DNA of 64,000 nucleotides from Kiritimatiellia bacterium (GTDB lineage: Bacteria > Verrucomicrobiota > Kiritimatiellia > JAAZAB01), in the NCBI GenBank assembly GCA_040767085.1, contig JAXGPF010000011.1, positions 128,001 to 192,000 on the forward strand. Reading direction: 5' to 3'. The position numbers and the translations under genes are program-made. Positions 4,196 through 45,341 of this stretch are shown here, piece by piece (position 1 is the stretch's first letter; the number at the start of each line of letters is the position of its first letter). The notes under the pieces were generated by a model. It made no database searches, was not told where the DNA came from, and saw only the letters and a list, made by a program, of their open reading frames with translations.

Positions 4196-6445
4196 TTACT
4201 CAGCGCTGTTTTTCAGTCGCCCGGAGATGGCATTCCGCCAGGCCGCGCTTAGCTCTGCCAGCGGCAGGTCTATGACCGCCCGGCCGCTGCCGCGCACGAT
4301 GAACTTGTCGCCGCCGACCTGCCCCAGCCTGACGCAAGGCGCCTTGAATTTCTGCGCCAACTTGTCCAGTTCCGGCAACTTATCCGGAGCCAGCGACACC
4401 ACAATCCGCGATGGCGCTTCGCCAAACAGAATTTCATCCAGCCGGATGCCGCCGGCCTGCAATCCGTCCAGACCGATTTCCGCGCCCAGCATATGGCCGG
4501 CGCGCGAAATGGCGGATTCCGCGAGCGCCACCGCCAGCCCGCCTTCGGAACAGTCGTGGGCGGAATGCACCAGACCGGCGGCGATGGCCGCCAGCGCGGC
4601 TTGCTGCACGGCCTTTTCCGCGGCCAGGTCAATTTGGGGATTGCCCTGCTTCCGGCCGTGCACCAGCCATAAATACTCGCTGCCGGACAGGTCGGGCCGG
4701 CAGGCGCCCAGCAAGACGATGGCATCCCCCGCGCGTTTGAATTCCTGGGTGACATGCTTGGCGACATCGTCAATTAACCCCACCATCCCCACCAGCGGCG
4801 TGGGATCTATCGCGCCCTTGGGATTTTCGTTGTAAAAACTTACATTGCCGCTGACCACCGGCGTGTCCAGCGCCCGGCAGGCTTCCGCCAGGCCTTCTAT
4901 GCACTTGGCGAATTGCCAATAGTTTTCCGGCTTCATCGGGTTGCCGAAATTCAGCCCATCGGTGATGGCCAGCGGCTTGCCGCCGCTGCACACAATGTTT
5001 CGCGCCGCTTCCGCCACCGCCATCATCGCGCCCTGGTAGGGATTCAGATAGCAATACCGGCCATTGCAATCCACGCTGATCGCCAGAGCCTTTTTGGCGC
5101 CCGGCACCTTGACCACCGCCGCGTCGGAGCCCGGCCCCGCCGCCACCAGGTCCCCATCCTGGAAGGTAAACGCCCGGGCGGCGGATTCCTTGCTGGCAAT
5201 CGTCGGCGAATCCAACAATTGCAGCAGCGCCTGGTTGAAATCACCGGGCTCCGGCAGGGCGGCGCGATCCAGCTTTTGCGCTTCCCGCAGGTAGGAGGGC
5301 TCCCGGGTTTCCCGGTCGTATAACGGGGCATGTTCGGTCAGGGCCGCCGGCGGAATTTCGCAGACGGTCTGCCCCTGGTCGAGCACCCGCATCAGCCCAT
5401 CGCCGGTTACCCGGCCGATTTTCACCGCATTGACTTTCCAGCGGCGGAGAATCTCCAAGGCGGCGGCTTCGTTTTCCCGGTTCAGGATCGCCAGCATGCG
5501 CTCCTGGGACTCGGACAGCAGCACCTCGTAGGGCGTCATGCCTTCCTCGCTGCGCGGCACCAGCGCCACGTCAATCTCAATGCCGGCGCCGCTGCGGGAG
5601 GCCGTCTCGCAGGTGGAGCACGTCAGACCGGCGGCGCCCATGTCCTGCATGCCGACAATCAGCCGCTTTTCGATCAATTCCAGGCAAGCTTCGCGCAGGC
5701 GCAGTCCCAGTTCCGGATCGCCAATCGCCACGGCGCCTTTGTCCGCACCGGAGTCCTCGGTGATTTCCTTGGAGGCGAAGCTGGCCCCGCCCACGCCGTC
5801 GCGGCCGGTATCCTTGCCGATGTAGTAAACGGCATTGCCCGCGCCGGTGGCGGCGCCTTTGACGATATTTTCATGCCGGACGATGCCGACCACAAAGGCA
5901 TTCACCAGCGGATTGCCCTCGTAACTTTCATCGAAACAGGTTTCCCCGCCGACTGCGCTGATCCTGGCTTTGTTGGCGTAATGCGCCAGCCCGCGGATGA
6001 CTTCCTTGTACAGCCATTGCACCTTGGAATTTTCCAGGCGCCCGAAACGCAGGGCCGCCAGGGCGGCCACCGGCCGCGCGCCCATGGTAAAAATGTCCCG
6101 CAGGCAGCCGCCCAGCCCGGTAGCCGAAGCTTCAAACGGCTGGACCGCCGATGGATGGTTGTGCGATTCCATCTTGAAGGCCACACCCCAGCCGTCGCCG
6201 ATATCCACCACCCCGGAATTTTCCTCGCCGGCGCCCACCAGCACCTGCGGGCCCTTGGTAGGAAACAGCTTGAACAGCTTGCGTGAATTTTTGTAGCTGC
6301 AATGTTCCGACCACATGGCGGAAAACACGCCCAATTCCGTGAAGTTCGGCGCCCGCCCCAGCAATTCCAGAATCCGCTTGAACTCTAATTCCGTCAAACC
6401 TAATTTTTCCGCCAAGGCTGCGTCAACTTTAACTTCCGTGCCCAT
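4196..6445 (-). CDS. purL: Phosphoribosylformylglycinamidine synthase subunit PurL
   Basis: MWSEHCSYK, KMESHNHPS, QDMGAAGL, SESQERM, SGNVSFYN, HDCSEGGL; start at MGTEV with GGGAG RBS. Confidence 0.97.
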   Translation of the reverse strand: MGTEVKVDAALAEKLGLTELEFKRILELLGRAPNFTELGVFSAMWSEHCSYKNSRKLFKLFPTKGPQVLVGAGEENSGVVDIGDGWGVAFKMESHNHPSAVQPFEASATGLGGCLRDIFTMGARPVAALAALRFGRLENSKVQWLYKEVIRGLAHYANKARISAVGGETCFDESYEGNPLVNAFVVGIVRHENIVKGAATGAGNAVYYIGKDTGRDGVGGASFASKEITEDSGADKGAVAIGDPELGLRLREACLELIEKRLIVGMQDMGAAGLTCSTCETASRSGAGIEIDVALVPRSEEGMTPYEVLLSESQERMLAILNRENEAAALEILRRWKVNAVKIGRVTGDGLMRVLDQGQTVCEIPPAALTEHAPLYDRETREPSYLREAQKLDRAALPEPGDFNQALLQLLDSPTIASKESAARAFTFQDGDLVAAGPGSDAAVVKVPGAKKALAISVDCNGRYCYLNPYQGAMMAVAEAARNIVCSGGKPLAITDGLNFGNPMKPENYWQFAKCIEGLAEACRALDTPVVSGNVSFYNENPKGAIDPTPLVGMVGLIDDVAKHVTQEFKRAGDAIVLLGACRPDLSGSEYLWLVHGRKQGNPQIDLAAEKAVQQAALAAIAAGLVHSAHDCSEGGLAVALAESAISRAGHMLGAEIGLDGLQAGGIRLDEILFGEAPSRIVVSLAPDKLPELDKLAQKFKAPCVRLGQVGGDKFIVRGSGRAVIDLPLAELSAAWRNAISGRLKNSAE

Positions 6446-13436: not shown

Positions 13437-13516
13437 TCCGGCGTGTTCAACTGCTGGTTGCCTGCCGGCCGTAAAAATATACTAGAATACGGGACTGACC
13501 CCTGTGCCCCCTGTGC
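13437..13516 (-). mobile_element. Y1-transposase end (GGGGTCAGTC) with decayed 5' transposase remnant
   Basis: GACTGACCCC at 13493-13502, tandem CCCCTGTGC x2; minus strand reads RQPAVEHAG, like RQPRVEYAG of the copy at 35801. Confidence 0.6.
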
Positions 13517-23941: not shown

Positions 23942-24142
23942 CCCCGGCGGGTTTACTCCGCCGGAGACCAAGGTTATAAGTGTTCGGTGTTCGGTAATTT
24001 CAAAAGTCCCCCGACGGGCTTGTTCCACCTGCGGCGGACAAGCCCGTCGGAGACCTAGGTTATGCAAAACGCCATGTGTTGTTTAAAAATAACACCTTGT
24101 GTTTTTGCATAACCTTTCGTTCCTGCCACGCAAGGTGGCAGG
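23942..24142. repeat. Cluster of intergenic hairpins
   Basis: Two related CCCCG(G/A)CGG...CCG(C/T)CGGAGACC(A/T)AGGTTAT units, AGGTTATGCAAAA/TTTTGCATAACCT, CCTGCCAC/GTGGCAGG. Confidence 0.55.
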
Positions 24143-24164
24143 GGACGACTTTTGATATTGAATC

Positions 24165-30160: not shown

Positions 30161-30230
30161 GCGGATTGAAAATTTGTGTCCAACTATCGCATAACGCGAT
30201 GGAAAACACAATCAAAACCCGCCCGCCGCT

Positions 30231-30520
30231 GTATCGCCGCACGGTGTGCGGCATTCCGTTCCGCCCTGTAGCGCCGCACGGTGTGCGGCGTTCCGCTCCG
30301 CCCCTGTAGCGCCGCACTGTGTGCGGCGTTCCGCTCCGCCCCTGTAGCGCCGCACGGTGTGCGGCATTCTCGCTCTGCCCTGTAGTGCCGCACTGTGTGC
30401 GGCATTCTCGCTCCGCCCTGTATCGCCGCACGGTGTGCGGCATTCCGTTCCACCCTGTAGTGCCGCACGGTGTGCGGCGTTCCGTTCCACCCTGTAGTGC
30501 CGCACGGTGTGCGGCTTTCC
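30231..30520 (+). repeat. Tandem array of 8 GTAG-REP units (37-38 bp)
   Basis: Units start at 30231, 30268, 30306, 30344, 30382, 30420, 30457, 30494; GTA(G/T)-(C/T)GCCGCAC-(G/T)GT-GTGCGGC hairpin plus near-constant linker. Confidence 0.9.
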
Positions 30521-30678
30521 GCTACTGCTCGGCCGCATACTGTTGACTTATCGATAATATTATTCAACTCAGAAGGATTGAGCCAATATTGAAAGGAATC
30601 CGCGATTCCTGAGACTATTTGTATGGCAAACAAAGGCATTGCCAACAATATTACTTTATACCAGTTTGGACTCATCAT
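30521..30678 (-). pseudogene. 5' part of a putative membrane immunity gene, cut by the REP array
   Basis: MMSPNWYKVILLAMPLFAIQIVSG..., low GC, follows a putative toxin-tip stop and runs into the repeats. Confidence 0.4.
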
Positions 30679-30707
30679 GTATTTCCTTACAAATAATAAT
30701 GTCCACT

Positions 30708-30875
30708 TTACATCGCTCTGCGTATCCCCAGGTACCCAGCCGGGCCGACTCCAGGTTTTGTAGCATGCTCGCACAATTCGCCGACGTCACCAGCCAATAC
30801 TTCCCCTGAAACAGGCAATGATTTATATATCGGTATTTTAACAAATGGCCGCATTCCATGCCGCGCGTTGCGGAG
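30708..30875 (-). pseudogene. Putative toxin C-terminal tip fragment
   Basis: Open frame begins at the 30880 end-site and stops 30 nt before a hydrophobic ORF. Confidence 0.3.
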
Positions 30876-30879
30876 ATTT

Positions 30880-30908
30880 AGGTCAGTTAGCAGATATATC
30901 AATGACCC
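30880..30908. mobile_element. Empty/fused Y1-transposase end site
   Basis: AGGTCAGTTAGCAGATATATCAA joined directly to TGACCC; matches GGGGTCAGTCAGTAGATATATCAA at 36330. Confidence 0.65.
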
Positions 30909-30917
30909 TTCCCCCCG

Positions 30918-31298
30918 CTAGACTCCCTCCCCGTTCAGTGCGTGCCCAAGAAAGCATAGTAAGATAATAGACATAACAACCAGAACTCTGTGAATAATCG
31001 CTATAGACAAAAGCGGAAATGTAAATAATGGGGACAGGATTATAACTAACGCTGTGACAATAAGCCATATTCCACGGATTCGCGATCCTTTTTCACGCTT
31101 TGGTAATTCTCTATAACGATTAACCAATTCAAATACAGCCCATGAAAACATAATTATACCGGCGCAGATAGCCTGCCATCCTTGAACCCTAATCCAAATC
31201 GACGCAGACGTCTGTCCATATCTGATTGCAGCAACGCCGACATATCCCATTAGCAGGCATGCACAGGTAAACCAAACAGATGTATTTTGATCTTTCAC
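30918..31298 (-). CDS. Putative membrane immunity protein (about 4 TM)
   Basis: 126 aa, hydrophobic, low GC, starts 10 nt after the Rhs-CT stop. Confidence 0.65.
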   Translation of the reverse strand: MKDQNTSVWFTCACLLMGYVGVAAIRYGQTSASIWIRVQGWQAICAGIIMFSWAVFELVNRYRELPKREKGSRIRGIWLIVTALVIILSPLFTFPLLSIAIIHRVLVVMSIILLCFLGHALNGEGV

Positions 31299-31308
31299 TT
31301 TGGAATCG

Positions 31309-32160
31309 CTAATTGACTGTATTGTTTATCTGGCGCAAGATTTCACTCAACGCCGTGCCGAAACTCCCCCATCCTGTAGATGGCCCAGGTGTCACTGCCG
31401 CCGCGCCAATCTCTACTGATATTAGCACCTGCACTGGGTGAGTAAGCACATATAAGCTGCCTGCGTAGATCGTAACCACTCCTTCCCCCCCTGCGCCAAT
31501 AATCGCAATCGGCGCGGCCTGTATTTCTGGAGTTGGCCCCCATATTGGATCGTGTGGTGGAGAAGGCGGCCCCCGCAGCGGAGGTGTCTCAAAGGCTTGA
31601 GACCCTTTTCCCTGAGTAAGAATTAGTGAAGGCCGCCAAGGACGAGGATCGGTTCTAATTGGAGGGAAAATGGGCCCTGGCGATGTTACAATACCGTGTG
31701 GCATATTTTGATACCAGCACCAAGAACCCCAAGTGTCCTGGCACAGCCCTATGGGATCGCGGCTATTGACCGGATTATTGTTGCAGAACACATACTGATT
31801 CACCCCGCCGGAAATCCCGATCGGGTCATTGCTTAACCACCGACCAGTCAGCGGATCATACCATCTTGCCCGGAAATAATACAACCCGGTATTCCATGAA
31901 TATTCCCGACCTTGCCAGAGGAAGCGGTTGCCCACACTGGACACCTTCATCACCCCGCCCGTGGAATCAAACACGCCCAAGACGTTGCCGAACGCATCGT
32001 ATTCATATGATTTCACGATATTGCCATCGCTGTCAACGATGGCCTGCACGGAACCCAGATGATCCTTGACATAATAATACTTCGTTGCGGCGCCGCCGGT
32101 GTGCACGGTCATGGCAAGAATATTGTCCACGCCCGGACCGAAATGGACGACGTGGGAACG
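31309..32160 (-). pseudogene. Orphan Rhs module (core 3' end plus Pro-rich/hydrophobic C-terminal toxin tip)
   Basis: GPGVDNIL, DHLGSV, YDAFG, GLYYFRARWYDP..GRWLSNDPIG, NPVNSRDPIGL; Rhs similarity starts near 32140. Confidence 0.85.
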
Positions 32161-32210
32161 GTTCTCCACGCTTTCCGAGCTGGCACTATTTATTTCAAAG
32201 AACATTAAAT

Positions 32211-32741
32211 CTACTTTGATAATAAATGACGTTTCCAGCATAATCCTGGCTTCCATTTCAGATTTTCTGCCCCAGACCTCGGCAGTGTCGTCGGAGGCTG
32301 TACAGGCTGAGGATTTACATTGCTACTACTTAACCATTCCACCGAACCGTTGGCATAAAGCACCGAATAGCCACCCATACCCTTATGATTTCTAGTTTTA
32401 TCACGGGCAATGATTTGTTTTGAATCTCCCGTCCCTTCGGGTTTCTTATAGATGTAACTTATGGAATTGGCGATTGTTGATGAGTTGTCATAATCCGCAA
32501 AACACTTCAAGCTTCTTTGGCTCTCAAGATACTTTGGATAAAGTTCCTGAAGAGTTACGGGATATTCGCCATCATGTAGATTACGATATTTTTCAATCGC
32601 CTGACCGATGCGATACAAGTTATCTAAACAGGCAACTATTCTCGCCTCCGAAGCTGACTTTGCCATATTGTGTACAATCCAAAATACTCCCGCCCCAAGA
32701 AGAACGAGAGTAACAAGAATGAATATCGTTTTTGATCGCAT
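32211..32741 (-). CDS. Pseudopilin-like (DUF1559/H-X9-DG-like) protein in immunity position
   Basis: N-terminal TM, CLDNLYRIGQAIEKY..GEYP, NHKGMGGYSVLYANGSVEW; 14 nt after the Rhs stop. Confidence 0.65.
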   Translation of the reverse strand: MRSKTIFILVTLVLLGAGVFWIVHNMAKSASEARIVACLDNLYRIGQAIEKYRNLHDGEYPVTLQELYPKYLESQRSLKCFADYDNSSTIANSISYIYKKPEGTGDSKQIIARDKTRNHKGMGGYSVLYANGSVEWLSSSNVNPQPVQPPTTLPRSGAENLKWKPGLCWKRHLLSK

Positions 32742-32755
32742 AACCAGGCCCCAGA

Positions 32756-34882
32756 CTAGGGAACACTTCCTGGAAGGATTGGAAACGTGCTAATAACTTC
32801 TTCAACGATTTTATTTCCGAAGGTGTAGCAGTTGGGATTCCCAATGCCCATAGCGTTATACCCCAGCTTATCTTGATTGGAATAAGCATCCCTAAACTTT
32901 GTGAGCATTTTATTGCTTTCATCACAAGTGGTTTCATAATGCCGATTCCACCATTTATTACCGAGCTTCCTAATGCTTTCCACTGTACGTGGCATATCTG
33001 GATAATAGCTCTGCAAAAATATTACGGGGTCAATGCAAGCTACTTCCGCTTTGTCTTTCCAGAAAACCCGCCATTGACTTGCGCCCCGATTCCAACTTTG
33101 ACCGCTGTAGTGGTATATTTCTACACCACCATTTGGAGTATCCACAGCCCAATAAGCGGTGTAACTGACATTGATTCGGTATACATCCAATCCCAACGGA
33201 TCAATAAACATCACGGGATTGTCGTTGCAAAACACATACTGATTCAACCCACCTGAAATCCCAATGGGATCGTTGGAGAGCCAACGCCCAGTGATAGGAT
33301 CATACCATCGTGCCCTAAAATAATAGAGTCCCGTCATCCAACTGTATTCTCGTCCCTGCCAGAGGAAGCGATTGCCGATGCTGGATGTCTGAAGGACGCC
33401 ACCTGTGGAATCATAAACGCCGAGCACGTTGCCCCATCCGCCGTATTGATAACTCTCTACAACCGAACCCGAAGAATCCACGATGGCTTGGACCGAACCG
33501 AGATGATCTTTGACGTAATAATAGGTATTGGTCGTTTCACCATGCATCGTCATCGAAAGAATATTGTCCACGCCCGGACCATACGTGTATGACCGGACCA
33601 GATTTCCGTTCTGATCGGTGTCGGCAATCACATGCAGGCCGTCATAAATCATTTTTTCAGTCACTCCGCCGCTGCTGACGGAAATCCGGCGGCCCAGCGC
33701 GTCATATCCATAGCTCTCGGACTGGGAACCGTTGATGCTGACGGACGTCAGGCGGTACCGGCTGTCCCAGGTCAGAGCCAGCACTCGTCCGTCATTATAT
33801 GCGATATCGGTCACATTCCCAGCGTCGTCATAATCGCAGTCGCCGATTGCGCCAAAAGTATTGAGCCGATTGCCCTGGCCGAGGCTGTAATTGATATTTG
33901 TGCCATTCTCTGTCATCTGCGTCCGATTGCCGGCCCGGTCGTAGGCGTAGGCAACGGTGAAGGTGTTGGAGTCAATATGACGGATTTCAGCGGTCAACCG
34001 GTCCAGGTCGTCATAGGTGTAATCATTGGTGGCGCCTTGGTCGTTGATGACGGTCACTTTCTGCGTGATCATGCCGGCGTTGTTGTAGCCGTAGTTGAAT
34101 GTGATCGGCTGGTTGGTTCCGGCAGCCCAATTGATCTCCGCAACCTGATCCATGACGTCATATTTGTTGGTCACGGAAAAAACGCCGGTTGCGCGCGCCA
34201 CCTTGGCAATCAGGCCGTTGTTGGAGTTGTAGCTGTAATCGAACGTGCCGGCCGGCGCGGTGATGGAACTCAACCGGTCGCCGGCATCCAACGTATAACT
34301 AACATTCCCAACAAGCGATGCGACGGAGGATACCTGGCCGCCCGGATGATATCCGTATTCCACCGTGCTGTTTGGCGTCACGCCCACAGTTTGGGTCAGC
34401 CGGTTGGCCATGTCATAGGCATTGGAGATGGCGCCCGCGCTGTCGGATACCTGTTTGAGCAGGCCGTTGGCGAGATATTCGCAGGAAATAGCGGCGTTTG
34501 GATAGGCTATCTGGGTCGGTCGTCCGCTGCCGTCATAGTCAAACGACACGCTTGAACCGTCAAAACGTGCCATGGAATCCACGAATTCGCCCACCCCGTA
34601 GCTTATGCTCATCCCCTGTCCTTCCACGTTGGTCACCGACACCGGCCGGTCTTGGATGTCAAGCACGTAGGATTCCACCGCCCGGTTCAAGCCATCGCGG
34701 ATACGCAAGGTGTTGAGCTGTTGGTTGTATTCATGGGTTATGCCAACCGTCTGGCCGTTCACCGTGCGGCTGACCGACTCCAGTTTGCGTGTAGGCAACC
34801 AGGACATCCGGGTAACCCGCCCGGCGCGATCCACATGGTTGGTAAGATTACCGATGACGTCGTAGTTGAATGTTTCAAGCAT
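32756..34882 (-). CDS. N-terminally truncated Rhs/YD-repeat protein with C-terminal toxin domain
   Basis: Many YD repeats, Rhs core, NPVMFIDPLGL then a unique tip; begins mid-repeat right beside the 34885 end-site. Confidence 0.9.
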   Translation of the reverse strand: MLETFNYDVIGNLTNHVDRAGRVTRMSWLPTRKLESVSRTVNGQTVGITHEYNQQLNTLRIRDGLNRAVESYVLDIQDRPVSVTNVEGQGMSISYGVGEFVDSMARFDGSSVSFDYDGSGRPTQIAYPNAAISCEYLANGLLKQVSDSAGAISNAYDMANRLTQTVGVTPNSTVEYGYHPGGQVSSVASLVGNVSYTLDAGDRLSSITAPAGTFDYSYNSNNGLIAKVARATGVFSVTNKYDVMDQVAEINWAAGTNQPITFNYGYNNAGMITQKVTVINDQGATNDYTYDDLDRLTAEIRHIDSNTFTVAYAYDRAGNRTQMTENGTNINYSLGQGNRLNTFGAIGDCDYDDAGNVTDIAYNDGRVLALTWDSRYRLTSVSINGSQSESYGYDALGRRISVSSGGVTEKMIYDGLHVIADTDQNGNLVRSYTYGPGVDNILSMTMHGETTNTYYYVKDHLGSVQAIVDSSGSVVESYQYGGWGNVLGVYDSTGGVLQTSSIGNRFLWQGREYSWMTGLYYFRARWYDPITGRWLSNDPIGISGGLNQYVFCNDNPVMFIDPLGLDVYRINVSYTAYWAVDTPNGGVEIYHYSGQSWNRGASQWRVFWKDKAEVACIDPVIFLQSYYPDMPRTVESIRKLGNKWWNRHYETTCDESNKMLTKFRDAYSNQDKLGYNAMGIGNPNCYTFGNKIVEEVISTFPILPGSVP

Positions 34883-34884
34883 TT

Positions 34885-35875
34885 GGGGTCAGTCAGTAGA
34901 TATAACAATATTAAGCAGTTTGCGCCTTTTCTCCCGCAGATCCGGAGAGTTTTTTAAACGACTTTTCTGCTTCGTAATCAATTGACTGCAATACGCGCGG
35001 GCGCCCATCTTCAGCACATCTCGAATCCAGTCCAACCGCATCACTGTTTCTGACTGGATGGCTTCGGCCATTACAAGCTTGCGATAATCGTTACATGGAA
35101 TCCCGGCCAGTTCTTTTTGCCTCCAGGTTGAAATACTTCAGTCCGGAGCTTAGGATCAGCCGCACGCAACTGGATACTTTTAAATGTCAATTGTCAAGGG
35201 CTGGCCCTGCGCACTGCCGCGCTTAAGATATCGTCCGTATTCCCGTCCCGCCAGCCGACTACGGCTGTCTATTTCTACACTCCCGTATACTCGCTCCAGT
35301 TCCAGCCAGGCCGGAGCTGTAGCGCGCCCCAGGTACGCCGGCAAACTGCCCCAAGGATACTCGCCGGCTTGTTTCACCAGGCCTGCCCGCAGCGGATTGA
35401 GATGAATATACGTGCTCACACGGGCTGTGAACCCAGATTCCTCCGCGTCAATCATTACCGCCTTGTACCGGCCCTGAAAAACATGCCCGTGCCGCCGGTG
35501 TCGCACATTGTAACGCAGGATGTAGGTGCTTAAAAACCATTTCATCCCAGCCACCAGATTGGTCTCCGGCGTTTCCAGCAGCATGTGAAAATGGTTGCGC
35601 ATCAATACATAGGCGTGCACCTACCATCCTGTCCGACCACATGTTTCCCCCAGCGTCTTGAGGAACAGGTTGCGATCGGCATCATCTTCGTAAATCGCCT
35701 CCCCGCGGTCGCCACGGCTCATCACGTAACGTGTCCGCCATAGCATTGCGCGACGGCGAATACAGGGCGCCAGCGTATTCTACTCTTGGTTGCCTTGGCA
35801 TATTTGGTATTTGGTATTTAACACCAATTAAATATATTAATCAAGCAAAATATACCAATATTCACGGACTGACCC
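34885..35875 (-). mobile_element. Decayed Y1/HUH (RAYT-like) transposase unit 1, pseudogene 34889-35801
   Basis: MPRQPRVEYAGALY, HUH motif NHFHML, GHVFQGRYKA, YIHLNP; 31-nt insertion, internal TAG, internal deletion; ends GGGGTCAGTC / GACTGACCC. Confidence 0.85.
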
Positions 35876-35899
35876 TCCACCCCCTCCTTATTTCCGCCT

Positions 35900-36289
35900 T
35901 TAACGAGTGACCCCGTATCCCACGGAACACTCTTGAATTAAATCGTCTTTAGTTCCAATTATTCCATCTTTACCAATACTAATTATCGTTATTTTGAAAG
36001 AATTATTTTTGTCCGTTTTTAATGACACGGCAATATGATTTCCCCATGCATCAAACAAATTTGGATTTGACGCAAACAAATCGTGCGAATGTTTCATTAT
36101 AGCATTTGTAATATTTGCCTGTATAAATTCTTCTTCTTGTAATTTATCTAAGGCAACAAAGATTTGTCCAAATGTATCATATGTTTTTAACACATTAACA
36201 TAAGCTACAAGATATCTGTAAAACAAATAACTTAACATTGCAATCAATATCGACAATATGAGAATAAGGGCTATTATTTTATTTTTCAT
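35900..36289 (-). CDS. GspG-C-terminal-like small membrane-anchored protein, putative immunity
   Basis: N-terminal TM, DAWGN, ISIGKDGIIGTKDDL; very AT-rich; ATG overlaps the TGA of a short upstream remnant. Confidence 0.7.
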   Translation of the reverse strand: MKNKIIALILILSILIAMLSYLFYRYLVAYVNVLKTYDTFGQIFVALDKLQEEEFIQANITNAIMKHSHDLFASNPNLFDAWGNHIAVSLKTDKNNSFKITIISIGKDGIIGTKDDLIQECSVGYGVTR

Positions 36290-36329
36290 TGAGCAAACAA
36301 TGTTGGGAAAAAGGTCCCCGTCAAAGATT

Positions 36330-36876
36330 GGGGTCAGTCAGTAGATATATCAATATTAAGCAGTTTGCTCCTTTTCTCCCGTAGATCCGGAGAGTATTTT
36401 AAACGACTTTTTTGCTTCATAATCAATTGACTGCAATACGCGCGGGCGCCCATCTTCAGCACATCTTGGACCCAGTTCAACCGCATCACTGCTTCTGACT
36501 GGATGGCTTCGGCCATTACAATCTTGCGATAATCGTTGTATGGAATCCCGGCCAGTTCTTTCGCCTCAAGGGTGAAATACTTCAATCCGGAGCTTAGGAT
36601 CTGCCGCGCGCAACCGCATACTCTCAAATGTCATTTGTCAAGGACTGGCCCTGCGCATTCCTAGTCTGGTTATAAATCGCTGGCAATCCTCATTAACGTG
36701 CATTAATTTTCACGCCGTTCTCCGCGAGCCATGACGCGGCTTATCCGCCATAGCCTTGCGTGACGGCGGATAGATCGCCCCCGCATATTCTATTCGGTGT
36801 TGTCTTGCCATGTGTCACATATCGCATATCCTAAATCATTTGTTAACCATTATTTATATATCTACTGACTTACCCC
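36330..36876 (-). mobile_element. Decayed Y1 transposase unit 2, pseudogene 36334-36811, large internal deletion
   Basis: MARQHRIEYAGAIY start, same C-terminus (...LLNIDISTD*); ends GGGGTCAGTCAGTAGATATA / TATATCTACTGACTTACCCC. Confidence 0.85.
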
Positions 36877-36954
36877 TTATTCCCCGCATTATATGACGCC
36901 GGGGATTATTCCTACTATTTTATTTTCTATGGGATACTAGTGTCTGCATTTTAT

Positions 36955-37320
36955 TTAACTACGCCTAATGGTCTCAATTTCCCGCTTAATGAATGCTGCA
37001 CACGCCTTAAACTTATCTGTGAATGTCACTTCCGAAGTCTCGGTCATATCGATCTTTCCTACAATGTAGGTTTCATTCTTACTTTTTTTGAAATACCATC
37101 CAGAGCTTGTTCGCTTATCTTCAGAGTATTCTAACCAGTAATTAACAGCCTGAAGATTTGTGGAAAGCACTTCTGCAATAGATATTTCCGAAATAAGATC
37201 ATAAATATCGCAATATCCCGTTTCTTTGAGTAAATCTTTTATGGAAACCGTGCCTGATGTATTGAACGTTTCAGGCAAGGCTATTATTAGGTCTAATACG
37301 TCGCTATCATTAGATTTCAT
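36955..37320 (-). CDS. Putative immunity protein
   Basis: 121 aa, acidic, low GC, 12 nt downstream of a toxin tip. Confidence 0.7.
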   Translation of the reverse strand: MKSNDSDVLDLIIALPETFNTSGTVSIKDLLKETGYCDIYDLISEISIAEVLSTNLQAVNYWLEYSEDKRTSSGWYFKKSKNETYIVGKIDMTETSEVTFTDKFKACAAFIKREIETIRRS

Positions 37321-37332
37321 AATACATGCCGC

Positions 37333-37551
37333 CTATCTGATCAGTTGTGTGCCATCTTCGCTCAGACGGAATCCTTTTCCAAGCAAATACTCCAATTCTT
37401 TTCGATATGAGCCCGATACTTCTCCTATATCCTTGACAGGATTGGACAAAATGATCTCGTCACCACGGGCAATTAGTCGATCCAAAAACTTTTGATTAGC
37501 TGCCCATTGTTCGGCCTTGGTCATTCTGTTCCATATAGCAGTTGGCATCAA
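37333..37551 (-). pseudogene. Polymorphic-toxin C-terminal tip fragment
   Basis: WAANQKFLDRLIARGDEIILS...YRKELEYLLGKGF resembles Rhs/CdiA-type tips; starts at the 37557 end-site. Confidence 0.65.
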
Positions 37552-37556
37552 AGATT

Positions 37557-38709
37557 GGGGTCAGTCAATTGATATATCAATATTAAGCAGTTTGCGCCTT
37601 TTCTCCCGCAGATCCGAAGAGTATTTTAAACGACTTTTCTGCTTCGTAATCAATTGACTGCAATACGCGCGGGCGCCCATCTTCAGCACATCTCGGATCC
37701 AGTCCAACCGCATCACTGTTTCTGATTGGATGGCTTCGGCCATTACAAGCTTGCGATAATCGTTACATGGAATCCCGGCCAGATCTTTCGACTCAAGGTT
37801 GAACAACTTCAATCCGGAGCATAGGATCTGCCGCGCGCGCGCTGCGCTATGCGCCTGCATTTGCGCCCCGCCATATCCATCAGCTTTTTTCGACATTTTG
37901 GCTTCCAAATCATCCCCGGCTAAGCGCAACAGCTCCTCGCGGAACGCCTGGCTGCCAAAATACCACCCACGGCGGATACTGCTCTGCAAACTTATTCCTA
38001 TTTTCTTAACGTCTACCAAACCCGCCTGCCGGGACTTGGCTGCCTGCGCCAGGGCGATCAGCCGTCCCAAATACTTCCGCCGGCAGCTGGCGTTATCCGT
38101 CAGGCCGGCCACGTTCATTCAGCGCTCCACGCTCAACCATCCCGAACGACGGCTTGGCGGCATTACATATTCCCGCAAACTGCACCACGGATATTCTTCC
38201 ATCCGCTCACCCCGCTCAACCAGTCCGGCGCGCATTGGATTCAGATGTATATAGTCAATCAGGCATCTCAAATACGCAGGATCTTTATCCTCGATCAGCA
38301 GCGCCTTGTAACGCCCGCCAAACACATGGCCCTATAATTTGTGCCGGATATTAAACCGGCGGGTATACGTGTTTTGCAACCAGCGCATACCGTCCACCAG
38401 ATTGGCCTCCGGGGTCTCCAACGCCAGGTGGTAGTGATTGGGCAACAAAACGTACGCATGCACGATAAAACCCGTCCGCCACGCATGCTTCGCCCAGCGT
38501 GGTTATAAATCGCTGACGATCCTCATCATCGCGCACTATATTTTCACCGCGATCTCCGCGAGCCATGACGTGACTTGTCCGCCATAGCCTTGCGCGACGG
38601 CGGATAGAGCGCCCCCGCATATTCTATCCGGTGTTGTCTTGCCATGTGTCACATGTCGCATATCCTAAATCATTTGCTAACCATTATTTATATATCTACT
38701 GACTGACCC
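37557..38709 (-). mobile_element. Decayed near full-length Y1 transposase unit 3, pseudogene 37561-38645
   Basis: MARQHRIEYAGALY/HVMARGD, NHYHLALET, GHVFGGRYKA, YIHLNP, YPWCS, RRGWYFGS; insertion, stops and frameshifts; inverted ends. Confidence 0.88.
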
Positions 38710-38864
38710 AATTTATTACGATCCTGGTCCATGCCGGTAAAACATCTCAGGTCGTCGGCGCCGTCACTAATCATGCGCACCGCGATATTTTCCCGGACCA
38801 GCGCGTCGAAAGTGCAGGCATGCACATCGTAATGATTTTTCATGCCTATGCCGGTGATAAATGA

Positions 38865-39298
38865 GAGGTCAGTCCCATCCCAAGTGCTTCTTGCGTACAT
38901 AGACATTTTTATTCAAGTCGAACGTAAAATGGCATCATTGTAAAGTGGTGCGGGGAACGGACGGGGAACCAAATGGAAATTCTCGAATCGGCGGGTTAAC
39001 GTTGCAAAATAAAACAACCACACAATAGTGTGGATGGGGGAATTATGTCTTTTGCTGCGTCAGCCATAGCCTATGGTGCGACGGCAAGACAACACGCCTT
39101 TAATGAGTGATCCCTTGCCCTGCACATTATATACCTCACGTATCCCCGGCGGTCGGACGGCGTGTCCTTTAATCCCATATTCCCCAATACCCACCCCACA
39201 CTCAGCCATGCCGTCCGCATTGCCCGCAGGCATCGGACTGATCCTTGCAGCCCCAATCTACTCGTCAATACTTATTATTAATTTATAGGACTGACCCC
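38865..39298 (-). mobile_element. Highly decayed Y1 transposase unit 4
   Basis: GAGGTCAGTC at 38865 and GACTGACCCC at 39289; internal AWLSVGWVLGNMGLKDTPSDRRGY resembles the mid-region of units 1 and 3. Confidence 0.55.
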
Positions 39299-42200
39299 TC
39301 GCCCCCCCTGCTTCGCCTCTGAACCCTCGCTCTCCTTTCATGCTATCTGCCCCTAATTCCCCGAGCCATGCGTTTCCAGCATAATTTCGATGTCATCCAA
39401 CAGGTAAGACGCCGGAATGAAACGTAAAATGCCGTCCATCGGATAATCTACGGCGAACCAGATGTTGTACCTGCCCGGAGCTAATGTCATATCCTGCACA
39501 ATCATAAATTGTGGCAGATTGGATAGCGGCCCCTGGAACACAGGATGGATATTCGTCAGGTTTCCATCAAACGGCATCCAGCCCATTGCCGGAGTCAAAT
39601 AATACCACGCGTTGCCGGTCTGGGCATAAGCCGCCACCCACCAATCAACATAATACCCGATATATGCTTCCGGAAGATTCATCATTTCAACGGCAATGGT
39701 CAGCGGCGTACCGGCGGTAATGTTTATCTTGCCGCCGACCAGATCATTGACGCTGAGCAAAGGCCCGATGACCCCGCAATAACCGGTGTCATAATCGCTG
39801 AATTCGCTTTCTCCAGCGGAATTCCCGGCCTTAATCCAATAATAGTAAGTCCATTGATCCACGACGTTTGTGTCATCATACAACGTATCCGTAATTGTAG
39901 CAATATGTGACGCCGTACCAGAATTGCTGGTGGTATTCCGCCATATCTGGTAAGCCGCTGCGCCGCCGGCCGCACTCCAGATCACCCGCACCTTGTCGTT
40001 ATACCCTCCATCGCTCGCTTGGATATCCACAGGGACGGAAGGCCGCTTATTAGCATTCACCGTGAAATTCCTGATCACATTCAGCGCTGTATTCCAGTTG
40101 GAATTCCCAGCTTGGCTGGCAATAATGCTGACCGCCCCTGTGCCAGTAAAGCTCAATATATTGCCGTTTAGAACAGCCGGCCCCTTTACGTCATAGCTTA
40201 TCGTCATACTGGAATTTGCTGTGGCGCTTAAGGTTATAACGCTGGCCACCTTTTGATCCGGGATGGCCGGGAACGTGATTATCTGATTTGCCTTTGCTAT
40301 AATTAGCGTGCTATTGGCAAAACCTTGGTAGTTAACTTCGCTAATCGTTACGATTATCGCATAAGAGCCCGAATTAACCGGAGCTTTAATACTCCCATCG
40401 TATGTGATGAGCACAGCCAAATTGGCTGGTACAGTCATGGCCGTTATGTTCCGAGCCGCCCCGTTATATGTTTGGTTCAGGTTATTCAGTGTGATTTTGG
40501 CTGTGGCCTTACTCACCGTCAGCGTCCCATGCGCGGAGCCCTGATAAAGATCCGAATACACAACTCCGTTTACCGCATAAATACCGGCTGCCGTTGGCGG
40601 TGTGCTCCTCCCATTATACGTGATGAACACAGGCAAGCCGTCGGGGACTGTCGTCGCTTCCACCAGCTGCGGTGTTCCATCGTAAATTTGGTTCATGTTT
40701 GTCAGCGACACTAAAGCTGTTTCCTTGCTCACATTAAATGTGTTCGTCACTGTCGGCGCTGCATTCCAGTTTATGTCACCGGTCTGCCCTGCCGTCACAA
40801 TCACAATCCCAGAATTCGTAAAAGTCAGGTTCGTCATCCAGGAAATAACACCCGGGCCGGAAATCACCGCAAAATTCGTCACGGTCAACCCAGATGATGC
40901 CTGCGCGAACAATCGGACTACATTTGTTGTCATCATTGAAGAACCGTCCGCAGGTGTAAAGTTCGTAATCGTTTGATTGCCTTTGCTCACCGTAAGTGTT
41001 GCCACTAGATACTGTGGACTATTTGTTGCCTCGGACGAAATAATTTCGTTTGTTACGTAATATGTCCCTACATTTAGCCCAGTAACAGTTACATTACCAG
41101 TAATTGTAAGCATTGATAAACCAGCCAAGCTACTTATTTCCGGAGTTGCACGCCACCAACCGGAAGCGTTAGTGGAATACTTTACGATATTCGAGATATT
41201 AATATTCCAATAGCCTGAATTTGTTATTATATAATTTTGTTCCGCCGGATCAGCCTCGCCATATACGCTCGCGTAAGTCAAACCCATAGGCAACAATCTG
41301 ATTGCGCCCCTTGGCACCTGCATTACTGTCGAATTAGTACTAATTCCCGTATTATTTTCAGCACGTACTCGATAATAATATGCCACCTTTGTTTCCAATC
41401 CTGTAACCGAGCAATTTAAGGCCAACCCAACCATCCGGTTGCTGTATCCAGGCAGATAAGATTTAAAGTCATTTGTTGGAGCTACGTCCAACCAGTAATT
41501 AGCAGCTCCTGCGGCTAATTGCCAATTAGCATCTAGAGATTTTTCAGTGAGATTTGTCGGCGCTAATATTGCTGGCGCATCAGGACGCGTTAAAAATGAG
41601 GCTTCTTCCGTGTAATTTGTCCCTACTAAATTCACTGCATATGCTAGAAAATAATTAGTTCGTCCAGACGGCAGATTAGTCACAAAATAGCTGAATGGAT
41701 CCGTCCCAAAAACAGACCTTTCATGGAACTTCATTCCGTCAGTGCAAACGCTGCCTGAGTTCGTCCCCCAATAAATTCCACGCTCCGTTATAGAACAGCC
41801 GTTGCTTGCTGTTACAATACCGCCCAAATATGCCGTATGTGACATGATATTTGACACAACTGGCACACCCATTGCGGGAATTGCGCGGATGATTACGCTG
41901 ATCGTTTCTGAATTTGAGCTTATCATACCGGAATTTTGCGCCCGCACCCGGCAATAATAGGTGTTCCCGGCATTTACGCCGGTTACGGTACACGATACAT
42001 TCGAACCCGTTAAATAGTTACTAAATCCGTCAAGACAGCTTGAAAAATCATTTACAGATGCCACATCTAAAAAGTAGTTTGTCGCCGTATCCACCGCGCC
42101 CCAATTAGCAGTAAAATTATTGGGCGCAATCAATGTCGCCTCAAGCACCACTGGCGCCGGAAGAGCATTAATTATCAGCATCCCATTGGTAGATCCCTGA

Positions 42201-45200
42201 TAGAGAACTTCGTTAATCTCACAGGCCACTGCGTATGAACCAATATTAGTCGGCGCCCAATTATTTCCTGCATAAGTAACATCAACCAACAGACCCGGGG
42301 GCACCGTCTTTGCTAACACTGACTTTGCCTTACCATCATAAATATGCGTTAGATTTTCAAGCATTACTGAAGCTAACGCTTTGATTCCATTAAACGAGTT
42401 AGTCACGTTAGGCGCGGGGTTCCAATTGTCATCACCAGCCTGACTGGCCACGACACTGACTGGTCCTGCACCGGAGAAACTAAGGTTCGTGCCGTCAGAA
42501 ATATTTGCCGACCCACCGGTCAGGATAAACGTAACGTCAAGATCAGAAGATGCCGTCGCATATAGGCATACGGTGTTAGTTATTGACTGGTCACCCGGAT
42601 TTGGGAAAGTAATAGTCTGGTCAAGTTTTTGGCCCATGCCCGCCAGATTAAGCATGAAAGGCGAATTTGTGGAATTATTAACAATAGAAACAGTACATGT
42701 GTAATTCTGTGCTGCGATTGGCGCAAAAGTTACAGTGATGTTGGAGGCGTTACCAGCCGAAATCAAAAAGGGCGAGCCAGGTAGCGAAAATACACTCGCA
42801 CCGGCGCCACTAGTGGTAACATCACTGATGGTTAACACGGCATTACCCGTATTAGTGAGGATATAATAGTTGGTTAAAATCTGCCCTCGAGGGATTGCTC
42901 CGAAGTCCGTACCCTTTGCTGAACTTGCGCCCTCGCCGTTGATAATCGTCGTGCCGTTGGGGCTTAACACTTGTAGGCCGGGGTCGGTATAAGTAAAGGC
43001 ATTGGACTTGACGGTCTCCCCGAAGGAGGTTGAAAACACATTGACCGACCCGGCCCCGATAGTAGCTGCCGCGCCGGCCATCACCACAATCTGCGTGGAC
43101 GATTGACTTATAATCCCGGCAACATTTATGCCGCTTAGAATGACATTAGTAACATCCATGCCATCGCCAAGGTTTGAGCCGGTAATAACAACGGTGTAAC
43201 CGCCAGTGCAACTCCCGCTTGAAGGATGGACTCCGCAATGAACGGCGGTAATACGTGGATAGCGGTACACATTGGATTGAGCCCCGATATCCCATCCCCC
43301 CCCTCCGATAGCATATATACAACTATCCAACACGCTCGCCGCTAGAAACATGCGGGCAGACGGCAATGACGCTGCTTCCAGCCATCCCGTTTCGTTATAC
43401 TTGTATACGGTGGCTTTACGGTTTAAGCTATTATCGCCACCGCCAATGGCATACAGCGAACCATTTAATACACCCGCTGCCAAATATGAGCGCACTGCTG
43501 GCAGCCCTGCTATCTCCTGCCATCCTGTCATATTAAGCCGACAAACACTGGGAGTATTATATCCGCCGACAGCATATAACATGCCATTTAACACGCCTGC
43601 GGCTAAACCAGTGCGCGGAGCCGGTAAGCCCACCACTTCCGTCCAGTTCGTACCATTATACCGATACACATTGGTAGAAAGACCGCCAATGGCGTATAAA
43701 GCACCGTTCAGGACACCTGCCGCCAACTCAGTTCGCGCGACCGGTAAGCCCGACACTTCCTTCCAGTCAACGCCATTGTATCGATACACGTTTGTTTTTG
43801 CCGAATCATTGTCATCCAAGCCGCCGATGGCGTATAACGCATCATCCAGCGCCGCAACCGCAAGAAACCTACGCGCGGCCGGTAAACCTGCTATTTCCGC
43901 CCAGCTTGTCCCGTCAAAACGATAAACATTAGTTTTAACGGCATTGCCGCTATCCCATCCGCCAACGGCGTATAACGCATCGTTCAGCACACCTGCCGCC
44001 AGTTGATATCGCGCCCCCGGCAAGCTCGCCACTTCCTGCCACTGGGTCCAATCTTTTATCACGACGCCGATTTGTCCTGCTGGATTCACTGTATAGGCCT
44101 TGTCATAAACAGTGTTGCCGACCGAAGCAGACTGGATCAGAAGGTCTTTAACGCCATCAGTGTTTGAGGGGGCTACAAATAAAACCCAATTTGTTCCCTG
44201 ACCGGCGATATTTGTTGTTCCCGCAGTGCCGACGCAGATATTGGTGATATCGAAACCATTACCGATATTCGGCTCACAGTTTGTGATTTGAACGACGTTT
44301 CCTCCTAAATAGGGACCTTTACGCGGATTCACTTCTTGTTTAGGAGTAAACTCGTAGGCTCCCACATCCACAATCCCGCCATAGATCCTCGAAAGACCAT
44401 CAAGGTCCATATTTGTCCCAGCAATATCAATAATCTCAACCAGATTATCATTGAGTCCGGCATTGACACAAATAGATATCGAGCTCAAGTGATAATTATT
44501 GCTCGTGCTGTTCACAAAGCCCAAGGTTGAAACACTTGCGGTAATCATCCCGGTAGAACTCCCCGACACATTATAAGTATTGTTCACGCAGGAGTAAGAA
44601 AGGCGTGAAGACATTGCCGCATTGCCACAGATATCCCCTCCTTGCCCGCCAGCTGCAACTGAATTATCAACAACTATGCTATTGAGAATATCAGCGGAAC
44701 CGGAGACAGCGATGCCTCCGCCATTACCGCTATTACCATTGATGCCTCCTGTTCCGCCGGCTTTAGTGCTATTTTCTAGGATAGTGCAGTTCAGCACAAT
44801 CAGACTGCCATCCACACACAATCCACCTCCGGATCCGCCTGCTCCAGCAGTTGATTTATTCCCATTCCCGCCCATTCCCGTATAGTTATCAGTGATTAAA
44901 GAACTGACAACAGTACAATTCGTTATGCATCGAATAGCACCTCCACTTCCGCCATTACCTCCATTGCCATCTGTAGCTCCTCCAATTATAACGGCCAGTC
45001 CGCTAGCGGCACCTATGCCACCGGAGTTCCCTTTGAAAACACAGTTAGAGATGCCTACAGATGATAAGGCGTAGATGGCGCCTCCACTGCCGCCGGAACC
45101 TCCATCTCCGCCATTTTGCCCAAACGCATTTTGGCCGATTTGACCTGCCCCTCCTCTGTTATTACTTATGATCGAATTTACAAGTGTTGAGTATTTTTCA

Positions 45201-45341
45201 ATGAACACACCTCCGCCGTTACCTCCACTGCCACCATCCCCGGCATCCCAGTTTGATGCATTATGGCCTTGACCCCCGGAGCCTCCAATATTTTCTGTAA
45301 CGATCGTATCCACAAGACAGATATCAGAGACAGAATATAGT

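Follow-up and report, generated by a model that had tools for sequence, protein, structure and literature searches.

TIRtrons, the closest described relatives of the elements considered here, consist of a RAYT-like gene lying between terminal inverted repeats (TIRs), and the protein encoded by this gene has been named TIRYT (Di Nocera, De Gregorio and Rocco 2013, PMC3733652). According to the same survey, the TIRs share the motif GGGGWSAS, occur singly, as dimers or in clusters, and overlap the 3′ end of the gene (PMC3733652). In a later classification, 20 of 26 TIRYTs were assigned to TnpAY1 subclass 2.1, with a C-terminal helix-turn-helix (HTH)/DnaA_C-like domain (Quentin et al. 2018, PMC6006769). 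The term TIRYT was found in the full-text literature in these two papers only, and the available portions of both contain no mention of toxin or immunity neighbours, nor of truncated DNA at TIRtron 3′ ends. Here we describe an array of such units within a 64,000-nucleotide (nt) stretch of a Kiritimatiellia bacterium genome (hereafter the window, to which all plain coordinates refer), which lies on contig C3 of that genome (G000). Four co-oriented units (U1 to U4) and one solo end are interleaved there with Rhs and other toxin remnants and with small partner genes.

Judged by their sequences, the units are TIRtrons, a known kind of element, and their gene is a TIRYT, a RAYT-like HUH/Y1 transposase. 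An initial annotation of the window had attributed the ends to HUH/Y1 transposase units, which was correct, and had suspected that Y1 families with inverted repeats might already be catalogued, as they are under the names TIRtron and TIRYT (PMC3733652, PMC6006769). It had also proposed that a single-strand HUH enzyme joins foreign DNA at these ends and thereby builds an integron-like array; the neighbours of related copies, the broken cargo and the constancy of the array do not support this. Our favoured reading, to which we assign a probability of roughly 0.55, is that an Rhs orphan array, now a relic, received TIRtron insertions behind its immunity genes, and that DNA on the 3′ side of the elements was subsequently lost or rearranged.

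Terminal repeats and the units they enclose

Matches to GGGTCAGTC or its complement occurred seven times in the window, against 0.20 expected (none of 100 shuffles reached seven), at positions 34886, 35867, 36331, 37558, 38701 and 39289 of the array and at 13493 outside it. The inverted ends alternating along the island were therefore recovered where the initial annotation had placed them; their length of 9–10 nt was an underestimate, the real TIRs being at least 15–25 nt long. The repeats are true terminal inverted repeats of 15–35 nt (GGGGTCAGTCAGTAGATATA...). Across the genome, the 10-mer GGGGTCAGTC was observed 21 times, where ∼4 would be expected under a second-order Markov model and 14.9 if base composition alone is considered. 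GGGGTCAG, which is consistent with GGGGWSAS, is present at both termini of U1–U4 and of ten further loci in this genome and its relatives (L009, L012, L027–L031, L041, L042 and L045). TIRs of types A, C and D are represented in the array, where all copies are decayed, and at least three TIRtron types must therefore have entered the locus. TIR copies without a gene, both solo and tandem and of types A–D, occur elsewhere in the genome; among them is a solo type-B TIR (GGGTCAGTCCCGTATTCTAGTAT...) on the minus strand at 13493–13501, outside the array and of the type that flanks the intact locus L009.

The stop codon of the transposase gene lies within the end (GAC TGA CCCC) in U1–U3, as first described, and likewise in the intact sister-species copy L027 and in L009 of the own genome, with L030 as an exception in which the stop falls a few codons before the end. 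U2 and U3 have ...TGACCCCAATCTTTG in common and diverge beyond it, again in agreement with the initial annotation, and the CCCCAAT stretch can be assigned to the element itself since it is also found in L009, L027 and L030.

Of the six intact Y1_Tnp genes that the genome contains elsewhere, two have the same GGGTCAGTC...GACTGACCCC ends on their flanks, namely L009 and L012 (Pfam Y1_Tnp, 46.4 and 33.6 bits, respectively). The best NCBIfam match of the intact proteins was REP_Tyr_transpos, at 52.9–58.2 bits; identity with REPtrons was rejected, as this score does not exceed 58.2 bits against a cut-off of 80 and the flanking repeats are not hairpins. Identity with the IS200/IS605 family was likewise rejected given the presence of TIRs and a transpos_IS200 (NCBIfam) score of 16.5 bits against a cut-off of 55. 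The intact L027 and L030 have HYH and YIHLNP motifs, and the ∼200-amino-acid (aa) C-terminal extension of the intact proteins had no Pfam match at E ≤ 0.1, including to an HTH/Bac_DnaA_C-like domain.

Five U3-type copies were identified in three sister species (G001–G003) at 79–84% nt identity, and their homology to the window ends exactly at 38709 and 37554. Intact ORFs (open reading frames) of ∼350 aa, of the L027 and L030 type, are found in two of these five. Intact transposases of this kind are therefore available as two type-D ORFs in sister species, along with L009 and L012 in the own genome, whereas no intact type-D copy was found in the own assembled genome (95% complete).

Every gene of the region is on the minus strand, and unit limits were set where homology to the sister-species copies ends. 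The first unit in the direction of transcription, U4 (38867–39298), is a type-C TIRtron remnant with the 5′ TIR GGGGTCAGTCCTATAAATTAATAAT and the 3′ end ...GGGACTGACC; tblastn with Y1 proteins gave no match in it, so that no Y1 domain is left, and its pieces match a sister-species locus (G002:C163) that has an open 340-aa Y1 frame. U3 (37552–38709), as delimited by sister-copy homology, is a near full-length type-D TIRtron with a TIRYT pseudogene, which was also recovered at near full length by tblastn with the genome's own intact Y1 proteins. Alignment to the intact L030 and L027 revealed its lesions: a 31-nt hairpin insert located between codons ...GALY and HVM..., a +1 frameshift and in-frame stops. 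Alignments place U2 (36325–36876) in type D as well, with an internal loss of ∼610 bp that includes the catalytic core; since both TIRs are retained despite this loss, it looks like a miniature derivative. U1 (34885–35875) is a chimera of types A and D: its 5′ TIR and Y1 domain are of type A (82% aa identity to the intact L012; Pfam Y1_Tnp E 5.5e-4, and 31.9 bits, above the cut-off, in a second profile search), while its last ∼290 nt are of type D (94% nt identity to U3). Over these last ∼290 nt U1, U2 and U3 are 91–94% identical, the remainder of the units differing. U1 and U2 also have in common a ∼50-nt derived segment that is not in U3, which indicates that both stem from one deletion derivative.

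The solo end (30880–30908) consists of GGGTCA followed by the terminal ∼30 nt of a 3′ end of type D, as read by eye, with 26 of 30 nt identical to the U2 3′ end by the same inspection. It had been described as an empty pair of ends; the end is indeed there, and what it represents is an almost wholly deleted type-D copy. The accompanying proposal that each non-empty pair brackets a decayed Y1 transposase held for U1 and U3, held in part for U2, and failed for U4, which has no recognisable Y1.

The hairpin insert seen in U3 (TCCGCC-15 nt-GGCGGA plus a short tail) recurs at the same Y1 codon boundary, ...GALY/HVM..., in all three type-D-ended units (U3, 38574–38604; U2, 36740–36770; U1, 35730–35760) and in L029, L031 and L049. 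TIRtrons of both type A and type D carry it, and it extends to a second genus; the intact L027, L030 and L012 are without it. The strict pattern occurred seven times in 3 of 41 genomes, with related hairpins dispersed over the genome. The insert may represent a small mobile hairpin with TIRYT genes as its target, or else a switch. Separately, an outward promoter in the segment common to U1 and U2, which might have explained the retention of the 3′ modules, was considered and dismissed: a consensus scan returned 20 promoter-like sites in the region against 15.5 expected, and none in that segment.

Flanking genes and the polarity of the two ends

The DNA between the units agrees with the content first reported for it, namely an Rhs starting mid-repeat, a 12-codon tail, a 72-aa tip, and a 67-aa ORF with a small membrane ORF after the solo end; its interpretation as Rhs and toxin remnants with probable immunity genes was also borne out, and the flanks on either side of a unit are indeed not contiguous parts of one gene. 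The GC content of this cargo is 35–46%, against 61% for the genome.

Behind U4 lies a 155-nt aspartokinase fragment with a C-terminal ACT domain (38710–38866; Pfam ACT_9, E 6.5e-8). It has 78% nt identity to the end of a 462-aa frame in a sister species (G001:C132), an aspartokinase by reading of its sequence, and 76% identity to the own genome's intact copy on C22. Both sides of this fragment are truncated: the 3′ end of U4 interrupts it on the 5′ side, and the 5′ TIR of U3 cuts it 13 codons short of the stop. The 72-aa C-terminal remnant of a polymorphic toxin (37333–37551) is truncated at the U3 3′ end. It has 70 longer homologues from many phyla, at up to 75% identity and many with RHS Pfam domains, in which a further ∼30 conserved aa precede the part present here; these are missing in the window, and the remnant was therefore cut inside the toxin domain, within ∼2 codons of the TIR end. 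The 121-aa ORF that follows (36955–37320) is, given its position, size and low GC, probably the immunity gene for the truncated toxin. A search of 300 other genomes of the phylum returned one match to it (L062), and tblastn found no homologue of the tip beside that match.

Downstream of U2, a 12-codon ORF tail (36290–36326), too short for homology search, has a stop codon that overlaps the start of the next gene (ATGA) and is presumed to be the last codons of a toxin gene; the next gene encodes a 129-aa membrane-type protein (35900–36289) and is, from its position, a probable orphan immunity gene. U1 is followed by a 5′-truncated Rhs gene of 708 aa (32756–34882; Pfam and NCBIfam matches), which begins mid-repeat and retains YD repeats, the core motif PVMFIDPLGL at residues 556–565 and a 143-aa C-terminal tip. 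Behind it lie a 176-aa ORF (32211–32741), by position the probable immunity gene of this tip, and a classical Rhs orphan of 315 aa (31309–32256; TIGR03696, E 3.7e-23) with no TIRtron in front, which consists of a core fragment with PVNSRDPIGL and a 144-aa tip and is followed by a 126-aa membrane-type ORF (30918–31298), its probable immunity gene, again by position. The feature that defines orphan arrays, an Rhs core PxxxxDPxGL with a variable tip and a small downstream ORF (here 176 and 126 aa), is present. The four partner ORFs matched no Pfam or NCBIfam family above cut-off, and their position makes them probable immunity genes. After the solo end, a 67-aa ORF without a Pfam match and an overlapping small membrane ORF (30540–30859) possibly form a further toxin remnant with its immunity gene.

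A full-length Rhs was not found in the 95%-complete genome, where the 708-aa and 315-aa fragments are the only RHS/RHS_repeat matches. The nearest full-length Rhs relatives are open frames of 1300 and 1482 aa, and Rhs frames in relatives overall measure 1300–2500 aa. The homologous Rhs of sister species G001 has its truncation point ∼25 codons further upstream, directly after ...GAGTGACCCC.

A difference between the two TIRtron ends emerged when flanks were compared. The 21 3′ ends examined, each judged case by case by homology, come from the window (five), from other parts of the same genome (five) and from relatives (eleven). For nine of them, DNA with a homology-verified 5′ truncation lies directly next to the end. 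In six of these nine the truncated flank belongs to another gene: Rhs, toxin tip, aspartokinase, PTS (phosphotransferase system) EIIA, sulfatase or an ISNCY transposase. The EIIA after the intact L012 is a C-terminal half (profile positions 72–139 of 144), the sulfatase after a 3′ end in G003 has a full-length orthologue in the own genome, and only the last third of the ISNCY transposase is left after a 3′ end in G016. The other three truncated flanks are partial copies of the element's own 3′ part, and L030 shows a 146-bp tandem duplication over the end and 9 nt of flank. Two additional flanks, the tail behind U2 and the ORF after the solo end, are putative cases of the same kind. The length of the open frame running from a junction was abandoned as a measure of truncation, as it confuses intact genes that start slightly downstream (L029, L045 and L009) with truncated ones. 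By contrast with the 3′ side, 13 of 15 5′ ends lie 2–166 nt behind the stop of a co-oriented ORF, and several 5′ flanks end in (A/T)TAG. No filled/empty site pair was found for the sister-species copies, for which one flank each of L029 and L031 is all that has an orthologue in the own genome.

Two further loci of the same genome illustrate the behaviour of the ends. In the intact type-A TIRtron at L012 (G000:C22:375067-376226), the 5′ TIR is present four times in tandem and the 3′ end abuts the EIIA half. The two flanks lie on different contigs in G001–G003, and the region has paralogues on C25; a simple deletion was therefore rejected for this locus in favour of a synteny break at the element. 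In a second array on C3 (109077–111530 of the contig), ∼17–19 kb before the window, a type-A TIR with ∼250 nt of following DNA is present in three copies, each TIR copy being followed by a restart of the same gene. The point at which the next TIR cuts this gene differs from copy to copy. The joints contain short TTCC/CCCC microhomologies, and the arrangement resembles the product of tandem duplication in which one end is precise and the junctions vary. Directly outside 5′ TIRs, G-rich short tandem repeats were also noted, (GGGAATAG)n, (GGGATAG)n, (GGGGCAAG)n and (GGGAGCATG)n, in the own genome and at loci L012, L031, C5:121458 and C6:24107; these may be stutter products at the cleavage site.

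Around the array, the gene for a 1986-aa surface protein with MBG, Kelch and fn3 domains (39353–45313, minus strand) lies upstream of U4. It is included in a low-GC island (30500–43000; 35–56% against a genome mean of 61%) that exceeds the array. At the distal edge of the island lies a tandem array of eight 38-bp units (30219–30523), each with GTAG followed by a CGCCGCAC..GTGCGGCG hairpin and resembling a GTAG-tagged REP; 8 of the 12 genome copies of this hairpin core are in the array. Elsewhere in the window, a ∼150-nt repeat (23996–24160, also L067:1180-1337) recurs at ∼15 places in the own genome with 78–94% identity and is probably another miniature mobile element.

Probable history of the array

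Under the favoured reading, a conventional Rhs orphan array would have come first, of which one intact orphan junction survives. TIRtrons of at least three types (A, C and D) would then have entered repeatedly, all in gene orientation, each inserting shortly behind the stop of the upstream (immunity) gene, the usual site for these elements. On the 3′ side of each element, loss or rearrangement of DNA would have reached into the next toxin gene, perhaps when the transposase joined the cleaved 3′ end to a site downstream, or through recombination between copies. Selection may have retained the immunity genes, the main rhs gene would later have been lost, and the elements themselves would have decayed through frameshifts, internal deletions, hairpin insertion and recombination between copies. 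We infer this order of events, and also that the element caused the 3′ truncations rather than followed them, the latter from the polarity of the 5′ and 3′ ends.

Several points weigh against this history. For a genome whose other Y1 genes number about six, four to five insertions in 9 kb is a high count, and the clustering has to be assumed. Neither an empty site nor a pre-deletion state was recovered for any junction of the locus. At U1 and U2, the result would hardly differ from that of a plain insertion into an immunity/orphan junction that was already there, and given their common ∼50-nt derived segment the two cannot count as wholly separate insertions. With 21 3′ ends, the sample is small, comes in part from one locus and depends on case-by-case judgement; ten of the 21 have no verified truncation, six being followed by an intact gene or intergenic DNA and four being unclassified. 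The lack of synteny at L012 and the duplication at L030 imply that more than one kind of event occurs at the ends. TIRYTs, moreover, are known from genome surveys, and the available portions of the papers describing them hold no biochemistry (PMC3733652, PMC6006769).

The neighbours of related copies and the state of the array in other samples bear directly on the proposal of integron-like capture. The five sister copies adjoin genes for a sulfatase, an esterase, LacI-type regulators, a C5 methylase, glycosyltransferases and a CarboxypepD_reg protein, and in the own genome L009 precedes an intact methyltransferase and L011 an intact phosphatase. When the ∼150 listed Y1 matches from 40 relatives (28 further matches lie outside this number) were compared by eye with the listed Rhs matches, two lay within 2 kb of an Rhs, both in G037, a member of a different family, where TIRtrons lie just behind or downstream of Rhs immunity genes. 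At one of the G037 sites (L063, G037:C93:6000-12152, positions 5613–6153), the TIRtron that stands behind an Rhs immunity gene is itself interrupted after ∼100 codons by a second TIRtron; the cut is formed by two tandem 5′ TIRs of the latter, the elements being nested or in tandem.

No match to Phage_integrase was found on contig C3, with six on other contigs, so that the absence of a nearby tyrosine recombinase first noted for the window extends to the whole contig. The cargo does not take the form of complete genes bounded by the ends: its pieces open with a cut toxin domain, with a tail of 12 codons, with an Rhs that starts mid-repeat or with a fragment of aspartokinase. Parts of the stretch are contained in 20 sequencing runs from nine studies. 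In contigs of four runs, one from each of four studies, every junction of cargo and unit was covered with zero differences and no joints at unit ends; these contigs break in the repeated 3′ modules, none spans two units, and rare variants are invisible in them. The expected gain or loss of cassettes at exact ends was accordingly not seen in the contigs of these four studies, within that limit.

Considering the alternatives together, capture of foreign DNA at the ends by a single-strand HUH/Y1 enzyme, giving an integron-like array of toxin/immunity cassettes, could account for five co-oriented 3′ ends in one locus, four of them followed by toxin-type cargo with a partner gene, for the abrupt start of low-GC cargo (35–46% versus 61%) at the end, for the solo ...GAGTGACCCC motif before a differently truncated Rhs in G001, and for the G037 TIRtrons that adjoin Rhs immunity genes. 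We nevertheless consider it very unlikely: the cargo is truncated and does not form whole cassettes, relatives' copies flank ordinary genes (with two of the ∼150 listed Y1 matches near a listed Rhs), the elements are of three types and all dead, without an intact type D in the assembled genome, and the array is identical in the contigs of four studies. The same junctions are also formed with housekeeping genes and with the element's own pieces, which points to deletion or rearrangement associated with the end and not to capture. Homologous recombination between TIRtron copies, acting as portable homology, might have stacked or deleted modules of TIRtron, toxin remnant and immunity gene without any action of the transposase. 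Such a module, arriving on incoming or sister DNA, would recombine inside the common ∼290-nt 3′ part or inside other copies. The identity of 91–94% confined to the last ∼290 nt of U1–U3, the chimeric structure of U1 and its derived segment in common with U2, the position of L012 at a synteny break, and the reported growth of Rhs, contact-dependent inhibition (CDI) and type VI secretion system (T6SS) arrays by recombinational displacement (PMC5361080) are all consistent with such stacking. It does not explain, however, why truncated DNA lies 0–44 nt from the exact 3′ TIR end at unrelated loci (sulfatase, EIIA, ISNCY), and TIRtron insertions inside or before each toxin gene would still be required; we judge it unlikely.

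Alternatively, a TIRtron may have overrun its 3′ end and carried a toxin remnant and immunity gene along, new copies landing head-to-tail before old ones. HUH elements of the IS91/ISCR/Helitron type carry flanks, and since in Y1 elements the target is retained at the 5′ flank, a head-to-tail, co-oriented array would follow; the tandem repeats of ends at L008 and L012 and the threefold end and flank with variable junctions at C3:109077-111530 fit as well. Such transduction is quite improbable here, as it leaves the mid-gene starts of the cargo unexplained, the 5′ flanks of U1, U2 and U4 resemble ordinary after-stop insertion sites, and none of the cargo modules was recovered a second time in the genome. 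Comparably improbable is a coincidence, in which the remnants had already been truncated by classical Rhs displacement and the TIRtrons inserted later at immunity/orphan junctions. Its best evidence is the TIRtron-free junction between the 176-aa immunity gene and the 315-aa orphan, where the Rhs fragment begins ∼40 nt after the immunity stop, a geometry equal to that of the junction between the 129-aa immunity gene and the 708-aa Rhs with U1 removed. It would need four to five insertions to hit existing junctions within a few bases, and at U3 and U4 these junctions would have joined two truncated, unrelated genes directly.

The favoured history of insertion followed by 3′ loss could be part of a broader behaviour, in which TIRYTs act as polar rearrangement engines: once the element has inserted behind a gene, the cleaved 3′ end would be joined to DNA downstream or on the sister chromosome, deleting, duplicating or replacing what follows, turning toxin loci into immunity-only islands and perhaps now and then capturing a foreign module. 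As a general account we hold this to be rather unlikely. The locus itself is one of ordinary decay, with dead, catalogued elements in a dead toxin locus, and the tempting reading of a new integron is removed. Its interest lies in being a natural example of how toxin genes may vanish while immunity genes persist, and the 5′/3′ asymmetry and tandem ends hint at which TIRtron end is target-specific and which one misfires.

Comparison with described systems

Integrons and the recombinase-associated acquired interbacterial defence (AID) immunity arrays of Bacteroidales (Ross et al., bioRxiv 10.1101/471110) resemble the locus in having co-oriented, small, probably immunity genes between repeats. They differ in that no tyrosine recombinase is present on the contig here, the repeats form the ends of units with a transposase gene, the cargo opens with broken genes, and no cassette variation was seen in contigs. 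With IS200/IS605 elements such as IS608 and ISDra2, described as single-strand 'peel and paste' transposons (PMC6006769), the units have in common an HUH/Y1 core, asymmetric ends and copies in one orientation. As for the flanks, the 5′ flank of the units often ends in (A/T)TAG and the 3′ flank is free. The difference lies in the ends themselves, which in IS200/IS605 have subterminal hairpins and no TIRs, unlike those of the units.

RAYT genes accompanied by REP or REPIN repeats (REPtrons, also RAYT/TnpA-REP) were reportedly described by Nunvar in 2010 and by Bertels and Rainey in 2011. REP_Tyr_transpos as best NCBIfam match, the inverted flanking repeats and the gene-less repeats scattered in the genome are points of likeness to these. 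Against this, the score falls below 80 bits, the repeats of the units are not GTAG-tagged self-complementary hairpins, and the whole unit is multi-copy and found at different sites in sister species.

As in the orphan arrays of Rhs, CDI and T6SS loci, immunity genes here are serial, each after a toxin 3′ remnant, with one core-fragment orphan and low GC; such arrays are said to grow by sequential or recombinational displacement (Kirchberger 2017, PMC5361080). The present locus differs from them in that the assembled genome has no full-length rhs, and in that three modules are without a core fragment and begin at a transposon end. The closest correspondence is with TIRtrons, from which the locus departs in that all copies in the window are dead and in that the C-terminal HTH/DnaA_C-like domain is without a Pfam match at the threshold used (E ≤ 0.1). 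The remaining features agree: a RAYT-like HUH/Y1 gene of ∼340–350 aa lies between GGGGWSAS inverted repeats (here GGGGTCAG), the 3′ TIR overlaps the end of the gene, the TIRs occur singly, as dimers or in clusters, and several types are present per genome.

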